64,000 bases of DNA from Minisyncoccota bacterium (GTDB taxonomy: Bacteria; Patescibacteriota; Minisyncoccia; Phycocordibacterales; UBA9973). Positions 9,961-62,697 of the stretch are shown here, in pieces. Location: NCBI GenBank assembly GCA_041650615.1, contig JBAZKU010000001.1, forward strand, positions 386,360-450,359, read 5' to 3'. The number at the start of each line of letters is the position of its first letter. Positions within the stretch are counted from its first letter, which is position 1. The position numbers and the translations under genes were made by a program. The notes beneath the pieces were generated by a model. That model had not been told where the DNA came from. It made no database searches and saw only the letters and a list, made by a program, of their open reading frames with translations.

Positions 9961-10017
9961 ATCAGTATTATACGTCTTTCAAGAAAAATTCCCCACACTA
10001 AGTGGAGGATTTTTCTT

Positions 10018-10943: not shown

Positions 10944-13703
10944 TTACTGCATCGAAGCATACCTAGCCATGATTTCTTTTTCCACTTCTTCGCGGTCACG
11001 ACCGTATTTTGTATAAGAAAGTTGTTTTAGACTGTCTACAATTTCCTTATTCCCCTCTTCCGGCGGTAGTGTTTTTAGATTAAAAGGTTTTGTCGGTTGA
11101 CCGTTTACCAACATACTCATATAAGCATTATAATTATCCAATTTGGTTATATCTTGAGCACTGAATGTTGGTTTGAATTTTGGCTCTAAGAAATTCGCGT
11201 CTTCCGTCCCAACGCGAAACACTGCCATTGAACCGACATTGCCAAAAACCGCATTCTTAATATTTTCCCCTAATTGAGTAATATACTGATGAGCAATATT
11301 AAGCGATAGTCTGTATTTTCTGGCCTCGGATAAAATGGAAGCGATAGAGTCGGTTGTTACGTTTTGAAATTCGTCTATGTATAGATAAAAATCATTTATC
11401 GGTTTGCCGAACATATCCACTCGGGAAAGCGCGGCCATTTGAATTTTACCTACAAGCACTAGACCAATCAAATTTGCATTAATATCGCCTAATCTGCCTT
11501 TGGAAAGATTCACCAGTAAAATTTTTTTCTCATCCATAATCTTTCTAAAGTTAAAAACCGAATTTTGTTGGAGCACCACCGGACGCATAATGTCATTGGA
11601 AATAAAATTATCAAATTTTGAAGAAATATAAGGTACAAAGTTTGCCAAGGATTGATCCCCGGTCGTTTGTTCGGCTGAAGTCCAGAACTGTTTTATAATA
11701 GGATTTTTACAGCGGGCTAATTTCAAATCACGAAATTCTTTATCTGCTAAAACTCTGGTAATCTCCAATAAAGTTGAGCCAGATTCGGGATCTTCCATAA
11801 CCAGAAAAGCACTATTGCGAAAATATTGCTCAAACATCGCCCCACCGCCGATTTTCATATCAAAAAGTTTATTAAAGATACCCATCATTTCATTTACCAC
11901 AAATGTTTTTTGCTCCGGATATTTCGGGTCATATTCCAGCATATTCAGCCCCATCGGTCGTATGGTATAAGCCGGGTCAAAATAAATCACATCATCCATG
12001 CGTTTTTTGGGGATACGGGACAAGATAGTTTGAATATCCGTCCCGTGAGGATCAATATAACAACAACCGTCGCCGTTTTTTATATCCTGCGTTATCATAT
12101 TAAGCATAATATTCGTTTTACCGGTTCCGGTTTGGCCAATAGTATAAAAATGCCTCATGCGATCTTCTCGCGACATATGAATAACAGTATCTTTTCCCCT
12201 GTAACTATTTACTCCTAGCACTATTCCCTCTTGTCCCATCTCTAACGGGGCGGGAGCAATGCCAGCTTTTGCTTCTTTTAATTGTGGCTGGCTTCCTATA
12301 CCGACAGGAAAATGAAACACGGAAGAAAGTTCTTTTAAATTCATAGGCAAAATCTTATCTCCAGAAAATGTGCGGTATGAAAAATCGTGGAAAAGTTCTT
12401 TCAACCCACTGTCGGAAATTCTCTCAAACATGAAAGAGTTGCTAGTTGATTCGGTAAATTGATTGAAAGAAGACTCTATTTCCGCCAGTATCATTAAGGC
12501 CCTTTCTTTTGTCGCAGCGGAAGCCACAACTCGAATATTTGCTTTCATGATTGTGCTTTTCATCTTATTGCCTATTTTTTCTATTGCGCCTTCATCTACC
12601 GCTTTTCTGCCTGCCACATATTTTTCCTCGGTCTTTTCTTTTTTCTTCACACCAAAAAGCAAATCTTTTGAAGCTTTCAAAAACGCCTTATTAAATTTAT
12701 AAAAATTATCCGCTGCATGTTTTACTGACATCCCTCCTTTAACATCATCTAAAATCAAATGAAATTCATCTATAAATTTCTCGCCAGCAGGAGCTATCAC
12801 CAGTTGAATGGCAGCACCTTCTCCTTTGGTTTCTAATTTCGAAAAAACATTGAGTAAAGTATTCATTGGATCGTGATCAATTTGATCATAAGTTTTTATA
12901 GGGAGAACAGAACGCTCTGAAAAATTAGCATAAGCTCCGATAGAGACACCATTCTCATTAAAAATATTATAATCATCTGTCACTTCACGGATTTTCGCAT
13001 CATGATAAAAAGCTAGAATTTGTTTCTCAAAAAGCGAGATATTTTTATTTGGTATAGCAGCATAAACTATCACCTCATCCGAGTTATTACTAAGCGCTAT
13101 TTCTAGCGTATAATAATTTTCTTTTTCATTATTTTTTCCTTCCGAGATAGATTGCATTCCTGCATAAAACTGTTCCATAGCACCGATAAATTCTTTAAAA
13201 TTTTTCTGTTTGTCGACTTCTTCCTTGGGCGGGGGAAGAGTTATTTCAAAAAGGGTCATATGAAGAGATTTAAAAAGAGGAGTCCCTTCTTTCAAATCAA
13301 ATATTTTACCTGTTTTTAAATATTGAATTAATACTCGGTGAAAATCATCATCTATGTGCGGATTCTCCATTGTTTCTACTATGGATAATGCATTTCTAAT
13401 TCCTTTAGTTATCACAATACCCAAAAGCTCTTCCATTTTACTATCATGAGTTTCGGGTTTAAGTGCAAGCACTATGCTTTCCGCTTCCTTTCTATTTATA
13501 ATGTTGTCTTTGTGGATAATTTCTTCTATAGGTTTTTCTTTATATTCTCCTATAATATCTTTCACCGCATTTTCATTCGCACGTTCAAGTTTCCCTTTGT
13601 CTATGAGTTCTTGTTCTCTTTTCGCAACATGAGCGCGCAAATAATCCAACTCTTCTTCCGGAGTTTTAAATTTTGGCGCTTCGCTCAAAAACGACTTTTC
13701 CAT
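10944..13703 (-). CDS. FtsK/HerA-superfamily P-loop ATPase, T4SS VirB4/VirD4 (TraC/TraG)-like, with a 500-aa soluble N-terminal region
   Basis: Walker A GQTGTGKT, IDPHGT, Walker B LYIDEFQN, ARKYRLSLNIAHQYITQL (T4SS ATPase RK...Q..QL motif); start set at MEKSFL (the upstream in-frame stretch is translation of a GC-rich repeat). Confidence 0.55.
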   Translation of the reverse strand: MEKSFLSEAPKFKTPEEELDYLRAHVAKREQELIDKGKLERANENAVKDIIGEYKEKPIEEIIHKDNIINRKEAESIVLALKPETHDSKMEELLGIVITKGIRNALSIVETMENPHIDDDFHRVLIQYLKTGKIFDLKEGTPLFKSLHMTLFEITLPPPKEEVDKQKNFKEFIGAMEQFYAGMQSISEGKNNEKENYYTLEIALSNNSDEVIVYAAIPNKNISLFEKQILAFYHDAKIREVTDDYNIFNENGVSIGAYANFSERSVLPIKTYDQIDHDPMNTLLNVFSKLETKGEGAAIQLVIAPAGEKFIDEFHLILDDVKGGMSVKHAADNFYKFNKAFLKASKDLLFGVKKKEKTEEKYVAGRKAVDEGAIEKIGNKMKSTIMKANIRVVASAATKERALMILAEIESSFNQFTESTSNSFMFERISDSGLKELFHDFSYRTFSGDKILPMNLKELSSVFHFPVGIGSQPQLKEAKAGIAPAPLEMGQEGIVLGVNSYRGKDTVIHMSREDRMRHFYTIGQTGTGKTNIMLNMITQDIKNGDGCCYIDPHGTDIQTILSRIPKKRMDDVIYFDPAYTIRPMGLNMLEYDPKYPEQKTFVVNEMMGIFNKLFDMKIGGGAMFEQYFRNSAFLVMEDPESGSTLLEITRVLADKEFRDLKLARCKNPIIKQFWTSAEQTTGDQSLANFVPYISSKFDNFISNDIMRPVVLQQNSVFNFRKIMDEKKILLVNLSKGRLGDINANLIGLVLVGKIQMAALSRVDMFGKPINDFYLYIDEFQNVTTDSIASILSEARKYRLSLNIAHQYITQLGENIKNAVFGNVGSMAVFRVGTEDANFLEPKFKPTFSAQDITKLDNYNAYMSMLVNGQPTKPFNLKTLPPEEGNKEIVDSLKQLSYTKYGRDREEVEKEIMARYASMQ

Positions 13704-13748
13704 AATTATAATTATAACATTAATTTTAAAAATTCGTCGAAGGTGTAG

Positions 13749-13866
13749 TTTTTTCGAGACATTGCGCAGGAGCTTAGAAAATAAAGAAGGTAATCCGACT
13801 ATTATTTTCTTGAGCGACGAGCATAGCAATCCGCAAGCTTGCGGATATGCGTGTCGAGAAAAAATT
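13749..13866. repeat. GC-rich repeat family 5, copy Y (ATTGCGCAGG ... GACGAGCATAGCAA with a 44-nt internal insert; CCGCAAGCTTGCGG palindrome)
   Basis: Shares CATTGCGCAGG and GACGAGC-GAGCATAG blocks with 48632-48660. Confidence 0.45.
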
Positions 13867-13882
13867 ATACCGAGAAAGAATT

Positions 13883-14650
13883 TTAAATCTGTGTCAATAT
13901 CTCCGGTTCGCCATCAGTAATCAAAATAGTGTGTTCAAAATGCGCGCTTTTTTTGCCATCGGCGGTGTGGAAAGTGTATCCATCTTTATCCAAAATCACG
14001 TTTTTTGTCCCATTATTCAACATTGGCTCTATGGCTATAACCATACCAGGTACAAGTTTTGCCCCTGTGCCAGCTTTCCCAAAATTTGGAATATAAGGAT
14101 CTTCATGTATGGCGCGTCCGACGCCGTGCCCGGATAAAACCTCTACAATGCCGTATCTATGCGGACGAACAAAACTTTCTATGCTATTGCTTATGTCTCC
14201 TACTCTGTATCCCGCTTGGGCTGCTCTAATACCCATCATCAAAGCTTTTTCAGTGATTTCTATAAGTTTTGCAGAAGAAGCACTGACTTCGCCCACAGGT
14301 ACAGTAATAGCCATATCAGTAAAAAGTCCGTTATGTTTCAATCCTAAATCCAAAGAAACAATATCGCCTTCTTTTAAAATTTTATTTTTATTTGGAATGC
14401 CATGAACCACTTCATCATTAACAGAAACACATAAAGAAGCCGGGTATGGGAAATCCGCCCCTTCCGGACGATAGTTTAAAAACGCCGGTTCATCATCCAT
14501 ATCTTTTATTAATTTTTCTACATATTTATCCAATTCCCAAGTGGAAATTCCCGGTTTTACTATTTCTTTAACCTTATATAAAACAGTAGCCAATCTTTTG
14601 CCTCCTTCTCGCAATATTTTTATTTCTTCCGGGGTTTTGATTATTATCAT
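13883..14650 (-). CDS. map: methionine aminopeptidase type I
   Basis: Typical Map fold motifs (metal ligands within GHGVGRAIHE and HFEHT). Confidence 0.88.
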   Translation of the reverse strand: MIIIKTPEEIKILREGGKRLATVLYKVKEIVKPGISTWELDKYVEKLIKDMDDEPAFLNYRPEGADFPYPASLCVSVNDEVVHGIPNKNKILKEGDIVSLDLGLKHNGLFTDMAITVPVGEVSASSAKLIEITEKALMMGIRAAQAGYRVGDISNSIESFVRPHRYGIVEVLSGHGVGRAIHEDPYIPNFGKAGTGAKLVPGMVIAIEPMLNNGTKNVILDKDGYTFHTADGKKSAHFEHTILITDGEPEILTQI

Positions 14651-15327
14651 TTTATTACCGTTCCTAAAAACTTCTCGCCATTTAAACACTTGGCTAAATT
14701 ATCAATCGGCTTGCCATTCATTATTACCACCTCTATTCCCTCTTTTTCCGCCATTTCCGAAGCAATGGGGTCAAATGGCGAATTAAGACCCGGATTCCAG
14801 TCTTTTGGAATTAATTTCCTATATTCTGCCCAAGAAATTTTTTCAATTTTTTGGGCGCTTCCATTTATTTTTGGGTCAGAATCATATACATAATCCGTAT
14901 TGGATAAATTAATTATTTTCTTAGCGCCTAATGTTTTTGCTCCCTCAACCGCGTCCCAATCTGTACTGCGTCCGGGACCAAAAGCTGCCCCAATAATTAT
15001 CGGTTTATCAAAAGATAATTTCTCGGATAAATTAAGAATGACCTTTGGATGGGCATATTCGCCAAAGATAACTCTCAGTAATTCGGCATTTAATTTTAAA
15101 GAGGCTATCCCTATCCAATCCAAATCTTCATCGGAAGGATTAGTAAGTTCTTTGGCAACATCTTGATATTTTCTGCAAATTTTTCCACCACCGGTTATAA
15201 TTACAAATTTCTTGCCTTTGGCAACATGGGAAAGAATCAGAGATTTAAAATCCTTTAAAAAATTCAAGTCTAAATTTTCTGGGATAATAAGCGAACCACC
15301 AAGTGAAATTACTATCGTTTCTTCCAT
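14647..15327 (-). CDS. amino-acid-kinase family protein, likely short (archaeal-type) UMP kinase
   Basis: ISLGGSLI, IITGGG, GAAFGPGRSTD; 226 aa; sits between adk and map. Confidence 0.5.
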   Translation of the reverse strand: MEETIVISLGGSLIIPENLDLNFLKDFKSLILSHVAKGKKFVIITGGGKICRKYQDVAKELTNPSDEDLDWIGIASLKLNAELLRVIFGEYAHPKVILNLSEKLSFDKPIIIGAAFGPGRSTDWDAVEGAKTLGAKKIINLSNTDYVYDSDPKINGSAQKIEKISWAEYRKLIPKDWNPGLNSPFDPIASEMAEKEGIEVVIMNGKPIDNLAKCLNGEKFLGTVIK

Positions 15328-15328
15328 A

Positions 15329-15913
15329 TTAAAATTTCAATGCTTTAATAATATCTTTATGCACATTTTCTATAGTTTGCTCCCCATTTATTTCAATAAA
15401 ATTATATCCCGATTTACCGCGAAAATATTCAACCGATGGCATAACATCTTTCTCATACCAATTAAGTCTATTCTGAATTTTTTCTGGCGTATCGTCCGCT
15501 CTTTTACGTTCCATCATTCTAGTATAAGACCAATCTTTTGATACATTCATTAAAATGATATTCGGTTTTTCTATTTTATAAAAATCAAAAGCAGAATCAA
15601 GAGCTATTGATTCTTCTTTTCTACGGCAAACTCCGTCCAAAACCAGATCTTGGCCTCCGGAAAAATTCTTAATTAAAATATCCGTCCAAATCCAAATTGG
15701 TAAAAATACGGGAATAAGACCACCTTCTTTTAATATATTTCCAGCAAGTTTACTGGAATAATTATTTGTTTTTATAAATTCCCTAAATTGATTACCTGTT
15801 TCAGTGTATATAATCTCTTTTCCTTGCGACTTTAAAAAATCAGCCAAAAGTTTGGCTTGAGTTCCTTTTCCACATCCAGATCGCCCAAAAAATACAAAAG
15901 CTTTTGAATTCAT
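15329..15913 (-). CDS. adk: adenylate kinase
   Basis: P-loop GRSGCGKGTQA. Confidence 0.85.
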   Translation of the reverse strand: MNSKAFVFFGRSGCGKGTQAKLLADFLKSQGKEIIYTETGNQFREFIKTNNYSSKLAGNILKEGGLIPVFLPIWIWTDILIKNFSGGQDLVLDGVCRRKEESIALDSAFDFYKIEKPNIILMNVSKDWSYTRMMERKRADDTPEKIQNRLNWYEKDVMPSVEYFRGKSGYNFIEINGEQTIENVHKDIIKALKF

Positions 15914-15995
15914 ATAGAAAGATTACACAATTTTGGTGAAAAAATCAACCCACACACTTATTTTGGCTATACAAAATAAGTGTGTGGGTCAAGAT

Positions 15996-17294
15996 TTAAT
16001 ACTCCCTCATAGAGATTTGAGCATCTACTTTTTTGATGAGGTCAAGCACTACGGAAACTACTATGAGTAAAGCTGTGCCACCGAGAGCGATAGCGGTAAT
16101 GCCAGTGAGAGAACGCATAATCAGAGGTAAAACGGCAATGAAGCCAAGAAAAACTGCACCAAGCAGGGTAATACGGCTTAAAACCTTTGAAATATATTGG
16201 GAAGTGGATATTCCTGGGCGGATGCCTGGAATAAATGCGCCATTTTTTTGCAGATTGGTAGCCAACGCTTCCGGATCAAAAGTGACTGCTGTATAAAAGT
16301 AAGTAAAAAGAAATACTAAAATGAAATAAAGTACAGCGTAAAGCAGGCTTGTTTGTGAAAAAGAAACAAGCACTTTAGAAATGGAAAGTAAAATTGAATT
16401 GGAAGAACTCGCTAAAAAATTACCGATCATTTGAGGAAAAAGCAAAAGGGAAAGCGCAAAAATTATCGGGATAACTCCCGCTTGATTAACCCGAAGAGGC
16501 AAATAAGTAGAGCCTCCGCCATATATTTTCATTCCCCTTACCTGCTTGGCATAAGTTACAGGGATAGGACGTTCCGCTTCCGTTACAACTACCACTCCGG
16601 CAATTACTGCAGCTCCAGCCACGATAAACATCAAGAAGAGAGGAATTTGAGAAACATCAAAAGTAAAGATGAGTTGACTTATTTCTGTCGGAAGTTGAGA
16701 AACGATACCGGCAAAAATTATTAAAGATACTCCGTTTCCAATGCCAAATTCTGACATAAGTTCACCAATCCACATTAACAGCATTGAACCTGCAACAACA
16801 ATAATCAAATTAGTAATACGATCAAAAGCCGTCAAATTTACTAAAATATTCTGCCCTTCTAAAATAGCCAAAAGACTATATCCTTGAATAGCAGCTAAAG
16901 GAACAGTGAGCAATCTTGAGTATTGAGTAAATTTTTTCCTTCCCGCTTCCCCTTCTTCATGATAAATCCTCTTTAGGGCGGGAACCATAATGGTTAATAA
17001 TTGCATAATGATTGAACTGGTGATATAAGGCCCGACACCTAACATTATGATAGAAAGATTGGAAAGCCCGCCTCCAGAGAAGATATTTAAAATGCCAAAA
17101 AATTGATTATTCGTAAGAAAACGATTGAGCTCTAATGCGTCTATCCCTGGGATGGGAACTGAGGAAAGCAATCTAAAAACAACCAGTGCAGCAAGCACAA
17201 ATAAAACTCTTTTTCGTAAAATAGTATCCGTCCAAATCAATTTTATTTTATTCCAAAAATTTTCCATATGTTTACCTAACTCTGATCTTGCCAC
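15996..17294 (-). CDS. secY: preprotein translocase subunit SecY
   Basis: 10 TM helices, SecY signature region, position after rplO. Confidence 0.9.
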   Translation of the reverse strand: MARSELGKHMENFWNKIKLIWTDTILRKRVLFVLAALVVFRLLSSVPIPGIDALELNRFLTNNQFFGILNIFSGGGLSNLSIIMLGVGPYITSSIIMQLLTIMVPALKRIYHEEGEAGRKKFTQYSRLLTVPLAAIQGYSLLAILEGQNILVNLTAFDRITNLIIVVAGSMLLMWIGELMSEFGIGNGVSLIIFAGIVSQLPTEISQLIFTFDVSQIPLFLMFIVAGAAVIAGVVVVTEAERPIPVTYAKQVRGMKIYGGGSTYLPLRVNQAGVIPIIFALSLLLFPQMIGNFLASSSNSILLSISKVLVSFSQTSLLYAVLYFILVFLFTYFYTAVTFDPEALATNLQKNGAFIPGIRPGISTSQYISKVLSRITLLGAVFLGFIAVLPLIMRSLTGITAIALGGTALLIVVSVVLDLIKKVDAQISMREY

Positions 17295-42423: not shown

Positions 42424-42435
42424 TGAAATAAAAAA

Positions 42436-42470
42436 GGGCTGTCAGTTTATAAACTGACAGCCCTTGTTGT
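42436..42470. terminator. rho-independent terminator of the secretin operon (GGGCTGTCAGTTTATAAACTGACAGCCC, then U-run on the minus strand)
   Basis: 28-nt perfect hairpin followed by T6 in gene orientation. Confidence 0.7.
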
Positions 42471-42515: not shown

Positions 42516-43853
42516 CTATTGAATGACTCTCGGTGTAACAAAAACTACCAATTCCGTATCTTCTTGCGATTTTTTCAAACCGCCGAATACGGTGCTCCCA
42601 AGAGCCGGTATAGACGAAAGTCCAGGAATCCCATCCGCGTTATCTTGCTTACTCTGCATTAAAAGTCCACCAATGGCAATTGTTTTGCCATTTTCGACTC
42701 TAATAGTTGTCGTTTCCGACCTACGAGCAGTACTGGGAAGATTCTGAGAGCTGCCATTGTTCTCAAATTTTCTTTCCCCGATGATATCGGAGATTTCATG
42801 GTTGAGAACTATTCTCAACATTCCATCGCGAGAAATAAAAGGTTTGACCTTCATTTTGATGCCTGTTTCCACTTCTTTTGTAGTGAAATAGTTATAAAAG
42901 GCACCACCCCCAGAAAGAATTAAGTATAAGTCTTCCTGGGTTATTTTGATCTCCCCTTCACTTCCGTCTTCTACCACTATCCGCGGTTCAGCAATTATGT
43001 TCATCTTGGCTTCATAGCCATTGGCTTTTAATAAATTGCTTAATTGCCCAGTGAGATTTCCCACAAAAATACCGGGGACTTCTTTTTTGAACTCTCCTGT
43101 TCCTAGTGCGCCGAGGTTAATATCCCCCCATTGCATTCCAAGATTAGTCCCCTTGCTCCATTGAAATAAAACAAATCGCACCGAAACTTCAATTTGTCGT
43201 TTTGTTTTATCAATTATAGCAATAACCTTCTCCAATTCATCCAGTACGTCCGATGGTCCAGTTAAAGTTAGACTGTTCCCGGTTTTTGAAGGAGACATAT
43301 ACTGTTTATAATATTCCGAAATTTGATCCACTACTTTTATGGCTTCCTGATTAGTTGTGATAACTCTTGTACTGGAAAGTTGGCCAAAATTCAAATTTTC
43401 TGGGATAGCTTTTCCTACTATATAATAACCTTCCATACAGCGAAAATTAAATCCGCCGACAGAAAGAACCTGAGTAAGAGCAGCCTCCAAAGGGGTATTA
43501 ATAAAGGAAACAGAAATCGTTCCTTGAACCGATTCATCAACAATGATATTGGTTTTCGTCTGTGTAGCAATATCTAATAAAACTTCTTTTATATCAGATC
43601 CGGTGAAAACATTTGTGACTTTGGGCTGAGACTTCAGCCGTTCGTTTCTCTTTTTTTTGATTTCCGAATATTTTTCTTCCGCTTTTTTGGCTTCAGCTGA
43701 TTCAAGCTCTTGAATTTGCTTTGTGGTCAACGTTGGCTGAGACTTGATCGGAAGCATTTTTGGAAGCGCTTCCGGTTTGGTAAGATTGCTTGAGCAACCC
43801 ACCAAAAGAGTGATAGTTGAAAAAATTAACAAACCCATAAATAGGTTTTTCAT
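42516..43853 (-). CDS. secretin-family outer-membrane channel lipoprotein (short PilQ/GspD/RcpA-like)
   Basis: Lipobox LVGCSS; C-terminal secretin motif TIAIGGLLMQSKQDNADGIPGLSSIPALGSTVFG...ELVVFVTPRVIQ. Confidence 0.7.
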   Translation of the reverse strand: MKNLFMGLLIFSTITLLVGCSSNLTKPEALPKMLPIKSQPTLTTKQIQELESAEAKKAEEKYSEIKKKRNERLKSQPKVTNVFTGSDIKEVLLDIATQTKTNIIVDESVQGTISVSFINTPLEAALTQVLSVGGFNFRCMEGYYIVGKAIPENLNFGQLSSTRVITTNQEAIKVVDQISEYYKQYMSPSKTGNSLTLTGPSDVLDELEKVIAIIDKTKRQIEVSVRFVLFQWSKGTNLGMQWGDINLGALGTGEFKKEVPGIFVGNLTGQLSNLLKANGYEAKMNIIAEPRIVVEDGSEGEIKITQEDLYLILSGGGAFYNYFTTKEVETGIKMKVKPFISRDGMLRIVLNHEISDIIGERKFENNGSSQNLPSTARRSETTTIRVENGKTIAIGGLLMQSKQDNADGIPGLSSIPALGSTVFGGLKKSQEDTELVVFVTPRVIQ

Positions 43854-45130
43854 TTAGGCCTCTCTTTCTTTGTGATTTTTTTTGTGATTTTGGATTTTTC
43901 TTCCACTGATAAACTTATTTCTGAAACCAACCCTCTGTCAGGTTTCACAATAATTGTCGTCCTTTTTGGAGACTTACCATCATTGGAAACAATTAGTTTT
44001 ACATCTTTACTCTTCCCTGGTTCAATGGTTAAGCTTTGTGGCTCAACCTTAATCCAAGAATCAGAAACAAAAGAAACATTAATTGGCCGACAGTCGCTGT
44101 TAAAAACTTTGACTACCTTTGTTCTTAATGCTCCGACAGGAATCTGTATATCAACTTTTTTCTCAACAACCAGAAATCCGGTTTTATTTTCGTCAATGTG
44201 AACTTTTCGATTAATTGAGAAGGCTGTTTGGGAAATTGCCTTTTTGACTTTATTCCCATAATCAAACATTACATCAACTACATACTTACCTTTTGGTAAT
44301 TTTTTATCCCAGACTCCGATAAAATTTCTCTCGTCGCCCGGAAAAGTAAATACTTCATCTTTTGGATTTCCCATAGCCAGCAATTTTACCTGGCCGAAAT
44401 TCGTTCTTTTGTCTTCACTTCTGATAATTGCTATACCAGAAACAAAAAGATGAGAATTGCCGATATTTCTGAAAGTCGAAACAATTAGAGTTTTTTCCGC
44501 GAGTTGTTCAAAATTTGGCAACGCGTAGAACAACTGATGATCATCTTTGTAACTACCACTTATTGTCTCGTTTTTGATTTCCTGAATCAATTCTTTATTG
44601 ACAGGGATCATTTCCGCTGAACTAGCCTGAGCTTTTTTTTCATAAATTCTACCCGGCACGTTTAAGATAATGGCAACGTAAATTCTTGATTTGAAATATA
44701 TTGCCATAGGTTTGTCTTTAACCTCTATCCTGGTCGCACCTACTGGTTCAATCATAATAATTGAATAATATTCGCCAGGTTGAGCATTCAGTGGTACAGA
44801 GATTTTAAATTTTAGTTCTTTTTTTTGACCCTCGCTTAAAGCAAGTCTTGTTTCGTCTAATTTAATCCACGATACAGCTGAAAATTTGGAATTACCCATT
44901 TTTTCAAAAGTATAAACACCCATCTTGTTGATTGATAAATCAGTCGGATAAATCATTAGGTTTTCGGTATTCATTCCCTTAGACCCAGTGACAGTTAAAG
45001 TAATATTTTGACTTTGTCCTCTTGGAATTGTTAATTCCACTTTTACAGGACTCACTTTAACAGCCTTAGCTATATTTATCAGCGACAGACAAAAAAACAA
45101 CAATATAATGTTCTTTATGAATTTCTTCAC
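43850..45130 (-). CDS. secreted beta-rich protein with two Ig-like halves (possible periplasmic chaperone-like component)
   Basis: Signal peptide; VSPVKVELTIPRGQSQNITLTVTGS; 4-nt overlap with the secretin gene. Confidence 0.4.
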   Translation of the reverse strand: MKKFIKNIILLFFCLSLINIAKAVKVSPVKVELTIPRGQSQNITLTVTGSKGMNTENLMIYPTDLSINKMGVYTFEKMGNSKFSAVSWIKLDETRLALSEGQKKELKFKISVPLNAQPGEYYSIIMIEPVGATRIEVKDKPMAIYFKSRIYVAIILNVPGRIYEKKAQASSAEMIPVNKELIQEIKNETISGSYKDDHQLFYALPNFEQLAEKTLIVSTFRNIGNSHLFVSGIAIIRSEDKRTNFGQVKLLAMGNPKDEVFTFPGDERNFIGVWDKKLPKGKYVVDVMFDYGNKVKKAISQTAFSINRKVHIDENKTGFLVVEKKVDIQIPVGALRTKVVKVFNSDCRPINVSFVSDSWIKVEPQSLTIEPGKSKDVKLIVSNDGKSPKRTTIIVKPDRGLVSEISLSVEEKSKITKKITKKERPK

Positions 45131-45140
45131 TTTTACCTCC

Positions 45141-45734
45141 TTAGAGTTTTGTTAGTGTTAGGTTAAGAACAGCCAAATATTCTCCGGCATCATCCGAAAG
45201 TTTGTTGTTGATCGGTTTTGATACTGTCTGAATTTTTAAATCCAAATAAAGATTAAACGGTTGTTCAAGAATAGTTGGAAAAACAGGAATTTCAAGAAGA
45301 ACAATTTGTTCGGCGGTTTTGTTCTCAAATAAAATCGGTTCTGCCATATTCGGAGAATATATTTTCCCTGAAAATAGTATTACTAATTTATCAAAAGAAT
45401 TTTTTCCGCCTGAATTACTTTTTTCTTCTCTGGATAAAACAGGAACAGGACTTCCCGGACTATTGCCGGAAAAAACCACTTTGTGCGGACCAAATAAATT
45501 TTCGGCCAATACAATTCCTATTTTTTCTGAAATTACTACATCTCCCGGCTTGTTAATGTTCGCTAATTTGATTTGTTCTTGCGAAAGCAAGCTGAAAGAA
45601 AAAATAAAAAAACACAAAATAAAAGCGAAACTTTTATTTTTCACTATAATCACTCCTTTCTTTATGTGTATTATTATGTCAAAGATCTTATAATTTACTT
45701 GTGGATAATAGCATAATATATACCTAATTGTCAA
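45141..45734 (-). CDS. secreted protein with SCPU-like C-terminal motif (AGEYLAVLNLTLTKL)
   Basis: Hydrophobic signal; C-terminus paralogous to the 45854 gene (AG-x-Y ... T-x-T-L). Confidence 0.4.
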   Translation of the reverse strand: MTIRYILCYYPQVNYKIFDIIIHIKKGVIIVKNKSFAFILCFFIFSFSLLSQEQIKLANINKPGDVVISEKIGIVLAENLFGPHKVVFSGNSPGSPVPVLSREEKSNSGGKNSFDKLVILFSGKIYSPNMAEPILFENKTAEQIVLLEIPVFPTILEQPFNLYLDLKIQTVSKPINNKLSDDAGEYLAVLNLTLTKL

Positions 45735-45853
45735 TAGCTTTTAAATAAACTCTTTTAAAGTAAAAAATAAAAAAAGCGTTCCAATTGGAACGCTTTATAT
45801 AAAAACAAGCAAGGGAACAGATAAAGGGAATCAGCAATACAGGGTGAAAAATT

Positions 45854-46498
45854 TTAAAACGCGCCGAGTGTGACAGTCATATTACATGTATAATTACCGG
45901 CGTCGGCCGATTTATCCCATGTGTAGGCAGGGTTGATTAAAGTTTGTCTTACTGGAACAGCTTCACTAGCGATAGTTGCATTAGCCCAAATATTCAGATC
46001 CATTTTAACTTGACCATTGTGCGGTGCTTCGGCATATTGTTTGGTATATGGGAATTGATGAGCTCCCTGAAGCCAAGTGCCATAGAAGAGATTCGATACG
46101 CCGTTGGTCGTAAAATAGATGGAATAAAGAGTCGGAATGACATCATAGCCATTAGAATGCGGTCCAACTTCTTGCCGAGCGAATCGTGGTTTTCCCTGAC
46201 CCGCCGGATTATCACCTGCTACGGTAACTGAAAATGGACAATTAGCATAAGCTATATTCCAACTTTGCGGCGAGGTATTGTAGTACCACTCTTCATTGCC
46301 ATAATAAGACTGATGTGTGGTAGTACCAAGATTCACATTAACCGGGCCGGGCATAGTTTCAATATATTCATTGAGATACAACGACAGATTAATAGTGGTA
46401 CTTTTGGGTGCCTGAGCGAAACAAGTACTTGCGACCAATAAAATAGCCGCCAAAACCGTGAGGATTTTGAATGTCGTTTTCATAAAACATCCTTTCAT
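45854..46498 (-). CDS. secreted protein with SCPU-like C-terminal motif (DAGNYTCNMTVTLGAF), C-terminal Phe
   Basis: Sec signal with AxA site (CFA-QA); candidate fibre subunit. Confidence 0.4.
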   Translation of the reverse strand: MKGCFMKTTFKILTVLAAILLVASTCFAQAPKSTTINLSLYLNEYIETMPGPVNVNLGTTTHQSYYGNEEWYYNTSPQSWNIAYANCPFSVTVAGDNPAGQGKPRFARQEVGPHSNGYDVIPTLYSIYFTTNGVSNLFYGTWLQGAHQFPYTKQYAEAPHNGQVKMDLNIWANATIASEAVPVRQTLINPAYTWDKSADAGNYTCNMTVTLGAF

Positions 46499-46738
46499 AA
46501 AAGTTTGTTAAACTGTGTGAATGTGGAAAAGTGAGCCTGTTCCCTGCTTATTGTTTTTTTGCTTGTTATTTAAAGATATTTAAAAGAGCCATTCCCATTA
46601 AGTATATTATACAAATACAAAAATTTGTCAAGAGGGTCTGAATATTCCCTACTTTTTATGTAATTAGAAGAAATTATCAAATTGGGTGCCTACACCCACA
46701 CCTATATTTTTATAGTCATAAATCATATAATAGAATGC

Positions 46739-46993
46739 ATGTTTTATGTTTATATTTTAAAAAGTAAAAAAGATGATAATATTTATTTTGGTTCAACTGA
46801 CGATTTACGACGCAGACTTTTAGAACATAATACTGGTAGGGTTCAATCTACTAAAGGTCGCCGTCCTTTTGAACTTAGATATTACGAATCATATTTCAAT
46901 GAAGCTGAAGCTAGAAAAAGAGAAGCTTCTTTAAAGAAGGACGGCAGAGCACTAGCCCAACTTAAAATTAGGATTTCTAAAAGTCTGCAATAA
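46739..46993 (+). CDS. GIY-YIG nuclease family protein (stand-alone, about 84 aa)
   Basis: FYVYILKS...NIYFGSTDDLRRRLLEHN.G...STKGRRPFELRYYE; leaderless-type start (TATAAT, 7 nt, ATG). Confidence 0.75.
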   Translation: MFYVYILKSKKDDNIYFGSTDDLRRRLLEHNTGRVQSTKGRRPFELRYYESYFNEAEARKREASLKKDGRALAQLKIRISKSLQ

Positions 46994-47007
46994 AAACATT
47001 GGTGTGG

Positions 47008-47079
47008 GTGCCTATCGAGATTTGAACTCGAACTGAGGGTTCCACAAACCCTAGTGCTAACCGTTACACCATAGGCACC
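47008..47079 (-). tRNA. tRNA-His (GUG) with encoded G-1
   Basis: Anticodon loop TTGTGGA; extra 5' G pairs with discriminator C73; T-arm TCGAG-TTCAAAT-CTCGA. Confidence 0.75.
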
Positions 47080-51534: not shown

Positions 51535-52083
51535 CTAATTTACAAAACTCAAAAGCTTTATCTGAAAAGTCGCTGTCCATTGCGGAGCTTTGGACTTGCT
51601 ATTTTTATCAGCAGATAAATCTCCCCCATTTTGATTTTGAATATCTGCTGAAACAAATTCAAGGTCATATGGAGAGTTTTCTAAAAGAGTTATTAATTTA
51701 TAAATGGTTCCAAAAGTTCCTAAGGCCTTCATTTCAACCATAAGCGAAGAGTTGTTTTTCGTAGGAGTAACAGAAACAACTTCAGCTTTAACTCCTGCTT
51801 CTTTGGCTAATTTTTCAATTGTATCCAAGAAGGGCACAACATCAGAACTTCGCACAAAATGTGTTTCAAGTAAAATCCTTTCCGGCTCTATTTCTTTAAT
51901 TAAATTAGCTAAGAATTTTGTATTTTCTCTTTGCACATCCTCTGTCTGCCACTTTTCTTGCGCCAGTTGCGATCTCTCTTTTTTATTGTTTATAATTATG
52001 TATAAATACACAAAAACAAAACAGGAAAGGAGAAAAAGCATTATGGAGAAAATTAATGATTTTTTTTGAAAGATAAATTGCAT
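51535..52083 (-). CDS. type IV pilus assembly protein PilO-like
   Basis: N-terminal TM, coiled-coil, about 180 aa, follows pilN. Confidence 0.5.
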   Translation of the reverse strand: MQFIFQKKSLIFSIMLFLLSCFVFVYLYIIINNKKERSQLAQEKWQTEDVQRENTKFLANLIKEIEPERILLETHFVRSSDVVPFLDTIEKLAKEAGVKAEVVSVTPTKNNSSLMVEMKALGTFGTIYKLITLLENSPYDLEFVSADIQNQNGGDLSADKNSKSKAPQWTATFQIKLLSFVN

Positions 52084-52084
52084 A

Positions 52085-52633
52085 TTATGAAGGAATTAAG
52101 CTTAGGCTAAATTTAATGTTGGATCCCTGTATAAAATTGGAAATTGGCAAGTCAACTTTTGAAAAAGCTATGTCGTCTTCAAGTGTTTGACGAAATAAAA
52201 GCAAAATTTCACGATTTGGCGCTATCCCGCCAATGTCTATTTTTTTGCCTGTTTGTGAATTATTTTGGTAAGCAATTCTTGTAATTTTAATATTCGGCAT
52301 TTTTTTTAATATAATTTCATTTATCACTTTCTGGGAAAAGATCAATTTGTTTTTTTGAGTATTTTCAATTAAGTCCAACTTATTTTTTAAATCATTAACA
52401 ACTGCCAATGTACTTTGATCAAGAGGGGTGACAGGGTTGCTTGTTTGTAATTCTAACCTTGCGTTAACGGTATTTTCTTCCACAGAAGAAAGAAAATATG
52501 ATGGTAAAATAGCGACGGAAGCGATTAAGAAAGATATTCCCAGCATAATAAAAATAATAGAGGCAAGCCTGAGATAAAAATCTCTAGACATTTTTTTCTT
52601 ATCTTCATTTGGAATTAAATTAATCATGTTCAA
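52085..52633 (-). CDS. pilN: type IV pilus assembly protein PilN
   Basis: INLIPNEDKKK (INLLP hallmark), TM, about 180 aa. Confidence 0.7.
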   Translation of the reverse strand: MNMINLIPNEDKKKMSRDFYLRLASIIFIMLGISFLIASVAILPSYFLSSVEENTVNARLELQTSNPVTPLDQSTLAVVNDLKNKLDLIENTQKNKLIFSQKVINEIILKKMPNIKITRIAYQNNSQTGKKIDIGGIAPNREILLLFRQTLEDDIAFSKVDLPISNFIQGSNIKFSLSLIPS

Positions 52634-53702
52634 AATCTCTTAAAGCAAGCCCTAAGGTGGTAGCAAATGCCAATGATTGATTAAAATTTATTTCCGGAAT
52701 ATATTTCCCCGTATCTCCGATATTTATCCAAACATCGGCCATTTCCACTCTTGTTTTTGTACTGACAGAAAAATACTCGGAAAGTCCTATTAAATTAGAA
52801 TCCCCTCCGCAAAGAATTATTTTTTTAATCGGAGGTCTGTCTTTCCCCTCTTCGTCTTTATGAGTATGCCAATATAAAAAATGTTTTACTATTTCATCAC
52901 GCAAAACAGAAACACCGTTTAAAAGTATGGTAGATACTTCGGGATTAGAAGCGTCACGTTTTAAGCCACACTCTTTCTTCTTTTTTTCCGCTTCCTCAAA
53001 ACTTATCTTTAAATTTTTCTCAATTATATTGGTAAGCATGACCCCTCCCATATCTAAAGTGGAAGTAAAAATGACAATACCGCCGGACACAATAAAAATA
53101 CCGGTGCGTTTTTTACCAAAATCTACTATCATATAAGTTTCCAAATCACCTTTTTTAATAACGGCCCTAACAATAGCCTGCGCTTCAAGTTCAAACGACT
53201 TGGCAGATATTTTGGAATTCTTAAAAATAGACAGGTATTCTTCAATTACATTTTTGGGAATAGCGGCTACTTGTAGTTTTAAACTTTGTTCGTCTTCGCT
53301 CAATAATTCATAATCAAATATGGTATCTTGCGCTGAGATTGGTATATATTCTTCAAGAGAAAGTTCTATCGCTTCTCTGACATTTTCTAATCCTAATTTT
53401 TCCAGTTTAAGATTAAAAAGATAGACCTGCTCTTCTGGTAAAGAAACCCGAACAGATTTCAGTCCTTCTTCATTCCGAAGCGATATTAAAATTTCTTCCA
53501 TTTTTTTGGGGTCTTTAATTTTACCAGATTCAATGATTCCTGACGGTATTTTTTTCTCTCCATAACGATTCACCTTAATGCTATTTCCTGTTTTAATAAG
53601 TTCCACAAATTTTATGGATTCATCTGAAATGTCCAAGCCAAAAGACGGCAACACTAGAAATTTCGGCGTTGGGAAAAATCTCTTAAAAAAATTTCTAAAC
53701 AT
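52620..53702 (-). CDS. pilM: type IV pilus assembly ATPase-fold protein PilM (FtsA/actin-like)
   Basis: FGLDISDESIKFVEL, actin-fold length; leaderless-type start. Confidence 0.8.
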   Translation of the reverse strand: MFRNFFKRFFPTPKFLVLPSFGLDISDESIKFVELIKTGNSIKVNRYGEKKIPSGIIESGKIKDPKKMEEILISLRNEEGLKSVRVSLPEEQVYLFNLKLEKLGLENVREAIELSLEEYIPISAQDTIFDYELLSEDEQSLKLQVAAIPKNVIEEYLSIFKNSKISAKSFELEAQAIVRAVIKKGDLETYMIVDFGKKRTGIFIVSGGIVIFTSTLDMGGVMLTNIIEKNLKISFEEAEKKKKECGLKRDASNPEVSTILLNGVSVLRDEIVKHFLYWHTHKDEEGKDRPPIKKIILCGGDSNLIGLSEYFSVSTKTRVEMADVWINIGDTGKYIPEINFNQSLAFATTLGLALRDFEHD

Positions 53703-59149: not shown

Positions 59150-60772
59150 ATGAAAAATTATTTAAACAAAATTAAAAATTATATTACTCTGCATAAATTT
59201 ATTAGCACCATTATTCTCATAGTAATTTTACTCATTGGTTATTGGGGATACGGAAAAGCCACAAATACCACTGGTGAGACGCAGTACATAACAACTACCG
59301 TACAAAAAGGTACAATAGTTTCATCCGTTACCGCCAGCGGACAAGTTGAAAGCTCCAACCAAATTGATTTGACTGCAAAAGTTTCCGGTACAATTACTTA
59401 CGTTGGCGTAAAAGCCGGTGATAAAGTCACAAAAGGTAAAACGCTTTTCTCAATTGATAATTCCGATGCAAAAAAAACTATTCGGGATGCGGAAATAAAT
59501 CTAGAAAATGCAAATTTAGCGCTACAAAAACTTAAAATCCAAAACTCCGATACAAATTTGAGCGCAGATCTGGTAAGAGCTTATGATGACGGTTTTAACG
59601 CCGTTTCAAATACATTTCTAGATTTATCATCTGTCATCCCGGGAGTTGAAGATATTTTAAATGAATCAAACCTTTCAGATAATGCCGCTAGAGATAGCGG
59701 TATCATAGCAGTAGATTATAAACGGAAGGCTGAAAAATTATATTATGAAGCTCAAAATGATTTTCAAGAAAATGCAGTATTTTTTAGAACACTTGACCAT
59801 AGTTCATCAGAAACTGATATTGAAAAAATTATAGATGATACTTATAAAGTAACTATTACTTTATCCGATGCTTTAAATAGTACTAAAAATTACGTGGATT
59901 ATTTGGCGCAAAACACAGGCAGAACTTCTGATTTTTCTTCTTTCCAAGATACTCTTTCTGATTATATAAGTAAGATAAATGCGGACACTTCCAGCCTTTT
60001 TTCGGCTAAAACAAACATAACAAGCTATAAAGACACTTCCATAAGCAACAATCTAGATATACAAACTTCAGAATTATCTCTTAAACAAAAAGAAAATGCT
60101 TTACAAGATGCAAAAGATGATTTGTTAAATTATTATTTATTCGCGCCTTTTGACGGAATAATAGCGAGCATCACAGCCAAAGTCGGAGATACTGCTTCTG
60201 GGACACTCGGTTCAATAATTACAAATCAAAAAATTGCCACATTGTCTATGAATGAAGTGGATGTAGCAAAAATAAAACTTGGAGAAAAAGCAATCATAAC
60301 GTTTGATGCCGTAGAAAATTTGTCTATGACCGGCTCCGTAGTAGAAATTGATACTATAGGCACGGTATCTAGTGGAGTTGTAACATATGCCGTAAAAGTT
60401 GCATTTGACACAGAAAATGACCAAGTAAAACCAGGAATGAGCGTATCAGCATCTATTATTACTGATTCAAAAACCGATATTCTTATTGTTCCTTCTAGCG
60501 CAATAAAAACCAAAGGCACTACAAAATATGTTCAAATGTTTACTACCCCACTTGCTGCCCCTGCTACAGGGTCTAGAGGAACACCTTCTAGTGTGGAGCC
60601 AAATCAAGTAACTGTGGAAATAGGAATTTCGGATGATACGAATACAGAAATTATTTCAGGGTTAAAAGAGGGAGATCAAATTGTTTCTAGCACTATAACT
60701 AGTAGCACTACTAATACCACTAGTAAAACTAGCACAAATAGTTTATTAGGTGGAGGGGCGCCAAGAATGTAA
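59150..60772 (+). CDS. HlyD/MacA-family periplasmic adaptor subunit (long form)
   Basis: N-terminal TM, biotinyl-lipoyl-like and beta-barrel regions (QVESSNQIDLTAKVSGTI), coiled-coil. Confidence 0.75.
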   Translation: MKNYLNKIKNYITLHKFISTIILIVILLIGYWGYGKATNTTGETQYITTTVQKGTIVSSVTASGQVESSNQIDLTAKVSGTITYVGVKAGDKVTKGKTLFSIDNSDAKKTIRDAEINLENANLALQKLKIQNSDTNLSADLVRAYDDGFNAVSNTFLDLSSVIPGVEDILNESNLSDNAARDSGIIAVDYKRKAEKLYYEAQNDFQENAVFFRTLDHSSSETDIEKIIDDTYKVTITLSDALNSTKNYVDYLAQNTGRTSDFSSFQDTLSDYISKINADTSSLFSAKTNITSYKDTSISNNLDIQTSELSLKQKENALQDAKDDLLNYYLFAPFDGIIASITAKVGDTASGTLGSIITNQKIATLSMNEVDVAKIKLGEKAIITFDAVENLSMTGSVVEIDTIGTVSSGVVTYAVKVAFDTENDQVKPGMSVSASIITDSKTDILIVPSSAIKTKGTTKYVQMFTTPLAAPATGSRGTPSSVEPNQVTVEIGISDDTNTEIISGLKEGDQIVSSTITSSTTNTTSKTSTNSLLGGGAPRM

Positions 60773-60779
60773 TCTTTCT

Positions 60780-61463
60780 ATGATTGAAATAAAAAATATT
60801 ACTAAAATATATAAAAGTGACGCGGAAGACTTTAAAGCTTTAAATGGAATAACTTTTACCATTAAAGATGGGGAATATGTTGCAATTATGGGACCATCAG
60901 GGTCTGGTAAATCAACCCTTATGCATATTTTGGGGGCGCTTGATAAACCATCTTCTGGTACATATTTTCTTGACGGGAAAGATGTTTCTACCCTTTCTGA
61001 TGACAATCTCGCAGATATTCGAAGAGATAAGATTGGGTTTGTTTTTCAATCATTCAATCTTTTGCCCCGCGCAACGGTATTGCGCAACGTCTCCTTACCG
61101 CTTGTTTATGAAGGAATTCATGATGGCGAACGAGACAGGCGCGCGAAGAAAGCGCTGTTTGATGCAGGACTAGAAGAAACCCATTTCGGGCATCTTTCCA
61201 ATCAGCTTTCAGGGGGACAAATTCAACGAGTGGCAATCGCACGCGCCCTTGTAAATAATCCAACACTTATACTTGCCGATGAACCAACCGGGAACCTTGA
61301 TACAAAAACTGGAGAAATCGTTTTGGATACATTTCAAAAATTAAATCGTGATTTAGGTCGTACAATTATTCTTATCACCCACGAACAAGACGTAGCAGAA
61401 CATGCAGATAGAATCATTCATATTAGAGATGGAATGATTATAAGTGATAAAAAAACAAAATAA
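60780..61463 (+). CDS. ABC transporter ATP-binding protein (MacB/LolD-like)
   Basis: GPSGSGKST, LSGGQIQRVAIARAL, ILADEPTGNLD. Confidence 0.9.
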   Translation: MIEIKNITKIYKSDAEDFKALNGITFTIKDGEYVAIMGPSGSGKSTLMHILGALDKPSSGTYFLDGKDVSTLSDDNLADIRRDKIGFVFQSFNLLPRATVLRNVSLPLVYEGIHDGERDRRAKKALFDAGLEETHFGHLSNQLSGGQIQRVAIARALVNNPTLILADEPTGNLDTKTGEIVLDTFQKLNRDLGRTIILITHEQDVAEHADRIIHIRDGMIISDKKTK

Positions 61464-62697
61464 AAAAACTATGAAAGTAAAAGATATTTTAGAAGAAACA
61501 TACAGCGCGCTTTTTTCAAATAAAACTCGAACAGGACTTACCATGCTTGGTATTGTTATAGGGATAGCTTCGGTTATAGCCATGACCGCAATTGGACAAG
61601 GTTCAAAAAATTCTATCTCGTCAAGTATTGAATCAATAGGGGCAAATTTAATTATGGTTACACCCGGAGCCACACGTTCTTTTGGTGGCGGACCAAACGC
61701 TGCCCGAGGTGGAGCTCAAACATTAACGTTACAAGATGCTGACGCAATTCAGTCTCAAATATCAAATGTGGTTGGAGTTGCAAGAGAAGTATCCGCACGC
61801 CAACAAGTAACAGCAACAGGGACAAATACAAATACAAGCATTATGGGAACTGAACCATCTTATGAAACAGTTCGTAATATTTCTATTGATGAAGGAAATT
61901 TCATATCAGATCAAAATGTAACAAGTGGTTCAAAGGTTGCCGTGTTGGGACCGACCACAAGGGACGATTTATTTGGTGAAAATGCTACCGATGTCGTTGG
62001 CCAAAAAATTCGTATTTCTGGCTCAGAATACAAAGTAATTGGAGTTACAAAATCAAAAGGGGGTTCTGGTTTTAGTAATAGTGACGATATAATTTATATC
62101 CCCTATACCACCGCTCAAAGATATCTTTCCGGCAATAAATATTTAAGCGAGATTGATGTTTCGGCAGAAAGTTCTGAAGCCTCTCCCCAGGTTCAAACCG
62201 ACATAACAGCATTATTACTTGAACGTCATAACATTACAGACGCTACGAAGGCTGATTTTAGTACAATGAACCAAGCGGATGTTATTGAGACTGCTTCAAG
62301 CGTTGCAAGTACTTTTACTACTTTACTTGCTGCGGTAGCCGGTATTTCCCTTTTGGTTGGGGGCATTGGGATTATGAATATGATGTTAACTACAGTGACA
62401 GAACGCACCAGAGAAATAGGATTGCGTAAGGCTATTGGGGCAAAACGAAAAGATATTAATACGCAATTTTTAACAGAGGCGGTTGTTCTTACCTTTGTTG
62501 GCGGGACTGCGGGAATAATCCTCGGATGGCTAATATCTTTCATTCTTACCTATTTTGCAGTTTTAACAGCTGAAGTTTCGTTGTATTCAGTATTGTTGGC
62601 ATTCGGAGTATCTACGGTAATTGGTATTCTCTTCGGTTACTATCCAGCTCGACATGCGGCATCTTTGAATCCAATAGATGCCTTAAGGTATGAGTAA
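61444..62697 (+). CDS. ABC transporter permease, FtsX/MacB family
   Basis: N-terminal TM, large periplasmic domain, 3 C-terminal TM helices. Confidence 0.85.
   Translation: MIKKQNKKTMKVKDILEETYSALFSNKTRTGLTMLGIVIGIASVIAMTAIGQGSKNSISSSIESIGANLIMVTPGATRSFGGGPNAARGGAQTLTLQDADAIQSQISNVVGVAREVSARQQVTATGTNTNTSIMGTEPSYETVRNISIDEGNFISDQNVTSGSKVAVLGPTTRDDLFGENATDVVGQKIRISGSEYKVIGVTKSKGGSGFSNSDDIIYIPYTTAQRYLSGNKYLSEIDVSAESSEASPQVQTDITALLLERHNITDATKADFSTMNQADVIETASSVASTFTTLLAAVAGISLLVGGIGIMNMMLTTVTERTREIGLRKAIGAKRKDINTQFLTEAVVLTFVGGTAGIILGWLISFILTYFAVLTAEVSLYSVLLAFGVSTVIGILFGYYPARHAASLNPIDALRYE

Follow-up and report, generated by a model that had tools for sequence, protein, structure and literature searches.

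How can a bacterium of a group reported to be without secretins carry a lipoprotein secretin, and what would this protein do beside genes for small secreted proteins that match no described family? The question arises from a four-gene cassette, g1 to g4, on the reverse strand of a 64,000-nucleotide stretch of contig JBAZKU010000001.1 (assembly GCA_041650615.1, positions 386,360 to 450,359), which was analysed as a whole and is called the window hereafter. WC447_02340 and WC447_02325, from a metagenome-assembled genome (MAG) named 'Candidatus Paceibacterota', are identical to the products of g1 and g4, respectively; NCBI now files this taxon as phylum Minisyncoccota, kingdom Bacillati. The rest of the window is typical housekeeping of the Candidate Phyla Radiation (CPR), with FtsH, SecY, the ribosomal operon, NusG, MurB, TsaE, tmRNA and PilM. 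An earlier inspection of the letters without database searches (the sequence-only reading) had considered such a host; it is a CPR bacterium, from a group in which secretins have been reported absent (PMC6744442, PMC7143001, PMC9166423).

We propose, with a probability of roughly 45%, that the four genes form an autonomous, horizontally mobile 'chaperone-secretin' module. It would export small beta-sandwich subunits and probably build a surface fibre from them, with no ATPase dedicated to the task. A broader claim is better supported, by synteny, coupling and transfer evidence: g3 and g4 serve as a dedicated pair in the export or assembly of the small proteins encoded next to them. Gene calls were drawn from the source contig in ENA ERZ27247363 and from two independent short contigs. 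The genes and the signals around them are as follows, in window coordinates:

46604-46631, reverse strand: promoter-like site of g1 (TTGACA, 16-nt spacer, TAATAT; 10/12 matches, a pattern match only)
45854-46483, reverse strand: g1, 209 aa, Sec-exported beta-sandwich protein, candidate major subunit
45773-45796, reverse strand: hairpin directly 3' of g1, intrinsic terminator or attenuator (10-bp stem, then a T-run)
45705-45734, reverse strand: promoter-like site of g2-g3-g4 (TTGACA, 18-nt spacer, TG-TATTAT; 11/12 matches, extended -10)
45141-45644, reverse strand: g2, 167 aa, Sec-exported shorter paralogue of g1, candidate minor subunit
43850-45130, reverse strand: g3, 426 aa, Sec-exported, three beta-sandwich domains, candidate chaperone or adaptor
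42516-43853, reverse strand: g4, 445 aa, lipoprotein secretin
42434-42465, both strands scored: strong terminator hairpin closing the operon (14-bp stem, 7 GC pairs)

Searching with g3, g1 and g4 recovered the order (g1)-g2-g3-g4 at 14 distinct loci, 13 from CPR/Patescibacteria and one from Aminicenantales, with g3 homologues 36-78% identical to that of the window. This recurrence in related genomes, which the sequence-only reading had proposed to look for, marks a dedicated and conserved cassette. Gene order is identical across all recovered loci, which argues that the arrangement is not due to chance, and the flanks differ at every locus. The 13 CPR-type loci lie in low-GC housekeeping contexts (the named MAGs are Paceibacteria, Portnoybacteria, Saccharibacteria and 'Patescibacteria group'), and the cassette of the Aminicenantales MAG adjoins a tryptophan operon and response regulators. 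An assembly chimera was rejected, as the same arrangement appears in independent ENA, NCBI, JGI and Logan assemblies. The initial observation that the cassette encodes no usher, prepilin or ATPase was upheld by Pfam and NCBIfam scans: at none of the 14 close loci does the cassette contain an ATPase, usher, prepilin or prepilin peptidase, and no ATPase, usher or prepilin was called in the flanks of the ten loci with gene/Pfam tables (L001, L004, L007, L009, L017, L020-L022, L024 and L025). Ratios of nonsynonymous to synonymous substitution (dN/dS) of 0.11-0.17 across the four genes, with 0.17 for g2 and 0.13 for g4 (window versus L022; dS partly saturated), indicate purifying selection on all of them.

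More distant relatives separate a core from its partners. A g3-like gene lies directly upstream of both more distant secretins examined, in locus L019 (hhalign 99.7%) and in L017 from a Nitrospiraceae MAG (97.2%). The L019 secretin (2655-4826) is 723 aa long, with a duplicated N0-N unit and a TonB_C-like C-terminal tail, while that of L017 is a 520-aa non-lipoprotein. In both loci, unrelated small secreted proteins stand upstream in place of g1 and g2. The g3-like and secretin genes are thus kept while the small partners are swapped, which makes g3 and g4 the invariant core, inherited together across phyla, and a fixed pair with exchangeable partners is what one would expect if the pair assembles or exports those partners as its substrates. 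The L019 g3-like gene also gives a weak WxLIP_PGBD signal. In L017, a 118-aa lipoprotein (6687-7043, LAGC lipobox) overlaps the end of the secretin gene and may be a pilotin replacing the self-lipidation of the CPR clade.

Within the window, four consecutive reverse-strand open reading frames (ORFs) are present at 42516-46498 as first described, and the strong terminator expected at the cassette end was found; two of the starts were revised. The start of g1 is most likely at 46483 and not at 46498, since AAGGA precedes the second ATG, homologues begin with MKK and gene callers return 209 aa. A TTG start of g2 at 45734 is unlikely, because this TTG belongs to the -35 hexamer of the TTGACA/TATTAT promoter, the region's best promoter match in a consensus scan, and the GTG at 45644 is preferred. 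A tightly spaced operon of four genes had been proposed, which holds for g2-g3-g4: g2 and g3 are 10 nt apart, and g3 and g4 share the 4-nt overlap already seen (ATGA) and are translationally coupled. The remaining gene, g1, is a unit of its own, with a promoter-like site about 120 nt upstream of its start and its own terminator, so that the cassette forms two transcription units, g1 and g2-g3-g4. All nine aligned g1-g2 spacers have a GC-rich palindrome at the same position (read by eye), with differing stem sequences and, in most of them, a T-run on its 3' side. For the promoter-like site of g2-g3-g4, L004 has ATTGACAATTAAAA at 9442-9455, between its g1 and g2. A hairpin after a subunit gene is a classical means of producing major subunit in excess over assembly proteins, and the separate promoter and conserved terminator of g1 fit a subunit made in excess. 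Sec signals are present on 4/4 products, of the signal-peptidase-I type in g1 to g3 and with a lipobox in g4.

We take the four genes to be the unit of horizontal transfer. In L004, a CPR contig, a step in GC content from about 0.33 to 0.41-0.52 coincides exactly with the four genes (8401-12600), and cassette GC equals or exceeds that of the flanks in 13/13 CPR loci, while in Aminicenantales it lies below. The window cassette is not compositionally distinct (GC 0.369 vs 0.358; 20% of 4-kb segments are equally high), so transfer is argued from the other loci. Next to the cassette stands a tRNA gene, for His in the window and for Glu in L004. The window cassette is not flanked by att-type direct repeats, and an att-site reading of a direct repeat of about 115 nt in L004 was rejected, the repeat being two c-di-GMP-II riboswitch-like leaders. 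Between g1 and the tRNA-His gene (47006-47078, reverse strand), the window holds a GIY-YIG nuclease gene (46682-46993, forward strand). Copies of the tRNA-His 3' end at 46693-46713 and 46990-47010 (90% complementary) bracket this gene only, which has the appearance of a small mobile element inserted beside the tRNA.

By its domain matches, g4 is a complete secretin of minimal architecture, laid out as in phage pIV. An LVGC lipobox (Cys20) is followed by a charged linker of about 60 aa, an N0 domain, one N-domain and the secretin domain, which matches PF00263 at 7e-34 and 117 bits (cut-off 27.5) over positions 5-169 of 169. The protein had been described as a short lipoprotein secretin, and so it is, with no AMIN domain or S-domain and a single N-domain following N0. 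It had also been held to lack N0, wrongly, as PF21305 scores above its cut-off (3.7e-7, 30.3 bits; cut-off 27); a further Secretin_N match is weak. Against phrog_1012 (M13 pIV), g4 aligns full length at 4.3e-38, residues 87-444 on 30-400 of 403.

Attempts to place g4 in a known secretin system failed. It falls under the NCBIfam equivalog cut-offs for GspD, PilQ, MshL, SctC and HofQ, the GspD and PilQ matches being partial (151.9 for TIGR02517, cut-off 351; 137 for TIGR02515, cut-off 284), and no ATPase, platform or (pseudo)pilin genes lie in or beside the cassettes; membership in the type II secretion system (T2SS) GspD or type IV pilus PilQ groups was therefore not obtained. Among PDB sequences of solved secretins, GspD matched best, then PilQ, then pIV. 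RcpA (8odn), to which g4 had been likened together with CpaC, reached 36.9 bits against 87 for GspD and was second-weakest of the 22 solved secretins matched, with only the Deinococcus DR_0774 secretin below it; as tad genes are also missing nearby, membership of the Tad RcpA/CpaC group was rejected. The sequence-only reading had allowed that the secretin might belong to a Tad or T2SS locus with g1-g3 unrelated to it, but in no recovered locus is the secretin part of a Tad or T2SS gene set. The g4 clade is discrete (42-100% identity, full-length members of 421-471 aa, next relatives at 31% and 28%), and 42/49 members match a strict lipobox pattern, with near-lipobox sequences in most others.

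The predicted structure of g3 (32 homologues, pLDDT 82.8) has three beta-sandwich domains (about residues 24-158, 167-306 and 320-410), the second of them with a helical insert, and then a short Lys-rich tail; the two immunoglobulin-like halves first proposed gave too few. Its chaperone-like character held up better: in the predicted structure, domains 1 and 2 superpose on WxLIP and PapD-type chaperones, and structure comparison placed g3 among these proteins and not in an unrelated fold. The model places g3 structurally closest to Gram-positive WxLIP, and sub-threshold hits to PF06030 (WxLIP_PGBD, DUF916) occur in 27/32 family members. There is no PF00345 or PF02753 match in g3, and its family profile returned only chance titin matches among PDB sequences. 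The last strand of domain 1 (consensus RIAVVIVIDV) has alternating hydrophobics and leads into an invariant P159-G160-R161, a combination that brings to mind PapD, where the G1 strand is joined by Lys112 as the residue holding the subunit C-terminal carboxylate. Most g3 proteins are soluble and without a transmembrane (TM) anchor, which would be sensible only in a closed periplasm-like space. Three members continue through a long linker rich in acidic residues and Lys into a TM helix with a basic tail behind it, the type of anchoring known from WxLIP and PamC/D, and at least two of these, L020 and L021, also precede a secretin.

The description of g1 and g2 as small secreted beta-rich paralogues was borne out by profile-profile comparison, in which the g1 family matches g2 at 95.8% and E 7e-9 over 115 columns (hhalign). 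The signal peptide of g1 ends in …CFAQA; the mature protein of about 185 aa begins with a conserved alternating-hydrophobic stretch (consensus FNLSMTVDxYIE) and closes with a conserved strand, SADAGxYTCTMxVTLxAL. The C-terminal strand of g2 is DDAGEYxAxLNxxLxKL, and its motif, DDAGxYxAxIxxxLIK in nine aligned orthologues, is common to g1. The resemblance of these ends to spore coat protein U (SCPU) was not substantiated: no Pfam family, SCPU (PF05229) included, was found for g1, g2 or 41 g1 homologues, so SCPU membership was rejected, and even with E values up to 1 the same proteins gave no PF13731 (WxL) hit. For g1-g3, nothing above threshold came from Pfam, NCBIfam or PHROG scans, and the g1 family profile, too, met only chance titin matches among PDB sequences. 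A profile search of 1.84 billion proteins yielded 60 representative clusters of about 200 aa; the ten of these look-alikes that were scanned have no Pfam domains and form no bridge to WxL, SCPU or DUF4402. The g1 model (41 homologues, pLDDT 88) has low-scoring fold matches, with Foldseek TM-scores of just 0.2-0.4; carbohydrate-binding modules and viral jelly-rolls score nearly as well, and many carbohydrate-binding modules and lectin domains come close to the pilins. We regard the predicted fibre-subunit fold of g1 as a lead, not a result. Gene g2 was found in 14/14 close cassettes, including two without detectable g1.

We also observed that the g1 homologue is called on the wrong strand in some assemblies (L006 2104-2730, L025 7403-8032), because the antisense of g1 holds long ORFs. 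In the window, the antisense ORFs inside g1 are of 95 aa (forward strand) and 73 aa. Such miscalls could hide the family from protein-based surveys.

How might these parts work together? After export, g3 would cap the two small proteins, g1 and g2, by complementing them with a beta-strand in the cleft that separates its domains 1 and 2, a pairing suggested by the last strand of g3 domain 1 with its Pro-Gly-Arg and by the conserved C-terminal strands of g1 and g2. The complex would then dock on the N0/N periplasmic ring of the secretin, subunits would polymerise through the N-terminal strand of the next subunit (FNLSMTV…), and the fibre would leave through the secretin channel, with energy drawn from folding and strand exchange, as in chaperone-usher pili, and not from ATP. 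The bulk subunit would be g1, and g2, encoded with the machinery and more constant than g1, would serve as tip, initiator or anchor. AlphaFold2 predicts a WxLIP strand inserted into its WxL partner (PMC10599100), and CPR bacteria build their Pam pili by donor-strand exchange aided by PapD-like chaperones (bioRxiv 10.64898/2026.03.03.709456); both fit this picture.

Several points weigh against this mechanism. The invariant polar motifs of g1 (PRFAR, APHNGQ and SADAG) could mark a ligand, metal or catalytic site and not a pilin, and g1 is undetectable in cassettes L012 and L020. To our knowledge, all characterised secretin systems use a cytoplasmic ATPase, and these genomes encode type IV pilus machinery elsewhere: platform genes lie about 5-9 kb from the window cassette, with housekeeping genes and tRNAs between. 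Finally, CPR bacteria have been reported to have no outer membrane, the sole place where secretins are known to work.

Other readings of the cassette were weighed against these data. In one, g1 and g2 are non-polymerising surface or wall binders presented by g3, and the secretin is a passage through an outer layer, that is, a WxL-type display with no fibre. The weak PF06030 hits in 27/32 g3 members and the WxLIP-like C-terminal TM anchor kept in three of them point this way, and the C-terminal motifs Y..M.VTL and Y..L.LTL may resemble the second WxL motif. The composition matches as well, a typical WxL cluster having two WxL and one WxLIP protein, with small single-domain WxL proteins of about 180 residues (PMC10599100, PMC9772566), as in g1, g2 and g3. 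Yet PF13731 is not hit in g1, g2 or the 41 g1 homologues, WxL clusters lack a secretin and are essentially confined to Bacilli (PMC9772566), and g1, with a promoter and a terminator of its own, seems to be made in bulk. We consider this display reading unlikely. Still less probable is a minimal secretion device for soluble cargo, in which g1 and g2 are effectors, lectins or nutrient binders, g3 is a periplasmic chaperone or pilot and no filament is made. The invariant polar motifs of g1 would then mark a binding or active site, the close scores of many carbohydrate-binding modules and lectin domains would fall into place, and so would the replacement of the subunit genes by unrelated small secreted proteins in L017 and L019. 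Against this cargo reading, the paralogy of g1 and g2 and their strands at the C-terminal end better fit strand pairing between subunits or between chaperone and subunit, and no means is known of moving folded cargo across a gated secretin if neither a piston nor polymerisation drives it.

It is also quite unlikely that g4 is the 'missing PilQ' of a CPR type IV pilus or competence system, or a minimal T2SS outlet, powered by PilB/PilC/PilMNO encoded elsewhere and with g1-g3 as accessory alignment factors or cargo. This reading would agree with the known secretins, all of which pair with a type IV-filament, type III secretion system (T3SS) or phage ATPase, with the proximity of g4 to GspD and PilQ, with the PilM gene of the window and the two PilN/O-like genes beside it (51535-53702) and with a prepilin-like gene 7 kb from the L022 cassette. 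However, the insertion site differs in each genome, with no pilus genes adjoining in L004, L007, L009, L024 or L025, the cassette appears to transfer as a four-gene unit into unrelated phyla, g3-g4 coupling is kept even in the Nitrospiraceae and L019 versions, and most CPR have pilus genes without a secretin (PMC6744442). The least probable reading is that of a filamentous-phage-like remnant, or of a functionless relic acquired by CPR unable to use a secretin. It could draw on the full-length match of g4 to M13 pIV, on the tRNA adjacency in the window and L004 and on the compositional island in L004, but g1-g3 have no PHROG match, and there is no Zot/pI ATPase, replication gene or small coat protein. 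The ORFs are moreover intact in the 14 loci (g1 undetectable in two) with dN/dS at 0.11-0.17, and promoter, terminator and translational coupling are conserved. A filamentous prophage or Inoviridae export module was likewise rejected, the phrog_1012 match being accompanied by no other phage gene.

If the chaperone-secretin mechanism is correct, the cassette would work most like a chaperone-usher system with the secretin in place of the usher. Like the Pap, Fim, CFA/I and archaic Csu/CupE pili, it sends small beta-sandwich subunits out through Sec, one paralogue being the candidate major and the other the candidate minor subunit. The gene for the outer channel follows right after the chaperone gene, there is no ATPase, and a terminator hairpin stands after the major-subunit gene. 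Unlike them, it has a secretin as channel, the usher (PF00577) being absent from the four genes and from the flanks of the ten tabled loci, so that membership of this class failed; g3 has a third domain and neither PF00345 nor PF02753, the subunits are larger (about 185 aa mature), with no pilin or SCPU Pfam match and a weak fold match, and the cassette is found mainly in CPR. With the WxL clusters of Lactobacillales (two WxL and a WxLIP, the latter DUF916-DUF3324-TM), it shares weak PF06030 hits, some TM-anchored g3 proteins and two small secreted partners encoded beside a WxLIP-like protein. It differs from them in the extra MSP/ASH-type third domain of g3, in the usual absence of a TM helix, in its secretin and in its hosts, which are CPR, Aminicenantales and Nitrospiraceae instead of Bacilli. 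Membership failed here too, with no WxL domain (PF13731) in g1, g2 or the g1 family.

Pam pili, reported from Saccharimonadia and Microgenomatia, are likewise CPR-borne, Sec-dependent and ATPase-free, with Ig-like donor-strand subunits and PapD-like chaperones, but by their description they have two-domain pilins of 38-55 kDa, always TM-anchored PamC/PamD and explicitly no trans-envelope machinery, hence no secretin (bioRxiv 10.64898/2026.03.03.709456). On the secretin side, g4 shares with pIV the layout of secretin domain, N0 and one N-domain, and with liposecretins the N-terminal lipid anchor and lack of an S-domain. HxcQ is such a self-piloting liposecretin. In contrast to pIV, GspD and PilQ, g4 comes without genes for a partner ATPase (pI/Zot, GspE, PilB), a platform protein or a pseudopilin; its discrete clade has next relatives no more than 31% identical and hosts reported to lack an outer membrane. 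Donor-strand fibres built without a chaperone (archaeal cannulae CanX, Sulfolobus threads, TasA) require neither a dedicated chaperone nor a channel, and similarity to them is weak.

The pairing of a secretin with subunit-like proteins had been called undescribed, and our full-text literature searches met no description of a secretin with chaperone-like and small-subunit partners and without ATPase or usher. The cassette combines known parts in a new way, and would be a new pathway if the ATP-independent mechanism holds. More doubtful than the mechanism is the wider claim of a new class of secretin machine, in which a WxLIP/PapD-like chaperone would hand donor-strand subunits to a lipoprotein secretin that replaces the usher, independently of ATP. 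The only known role of secretins is that of an outlet for machines driven by an ATPase (T2SS, type IV pili, T3SS and filamentous phage), and ushers are the only known exit of donor-strand fibres from diderm cells, so that a secretin-chaperone unit would add an assembly route. It would link chaperone-usher pili, Gram-positive WxL clusters and secretins, fields so far separate, in a module of only about 4 kb that appears self-sufficient.

What, then, would the secretin cross? From the absence of PilQ and other secretins in their genomes it has been argued that CPR lack an outer membrane, and at least 13 CPR loci retain a lipoprotein secretin under apparent purifying selection. Were the mechanism true, this concentration in CPR would leave two readings of the envelope: either the carrier lineages possess an outer lipid layer, or the secretin ring is lipid-tethered through its linker of about 60 residues to the cytoplasmic membrane and forms a conduit through the wall or S-layer.

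A hint that fits the fibre mechanism comes from regulation in L004. The two elements of its direct repeat (8431-8517 and 12873-12954) bracket the cassette, resemble c-di-GMP-II riboswitches (RF01786; 47.4 and 45.0 bits, E 2e-8 and 1e-7, below the gathering score of 53.5) and each end in a terminator hairpin. The 47.4-bit leader precedes the g1 homologue and the other a TasA/camelysin-like gene. This riboswitch was sought in the window and ten other loci, where it is absent; riboswitches for c-di-GMP in a CPR genome would be of interest in themselves. Directly downstream of the L004 cassette lies a TasA-type fibre cluster (13075-17060), which encodes an S26/SipW-like signal peptidase along with three Peptidase_M73 (camelysin/TasA-like) proteins, of which one carries fused LTD and Laminin_G domains.

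Elsewhere in the window, the PilM gene (PF11104, 5e-35) is followed by genes for two 182-aa membrane proteins without Pfam hits, candidates for PilN and PilO. A MacAB-like efflux operon at 59150-62697 encodes an HlyD-family membrane-fusion protein (540 aa), an ATP-binding cassette ATPase and a MacB/FtsX permease; a periplasmic adaptor of this kind usually goes with a two-membrane envelope, and Gram-positive examples exist. Finally, a 961-aa protein at 10944-13829 carries weak TraG/TrwB/VirD4 coupling-protein signatures and may belong to a CPR type IV secretion or conjugation-like machinery.

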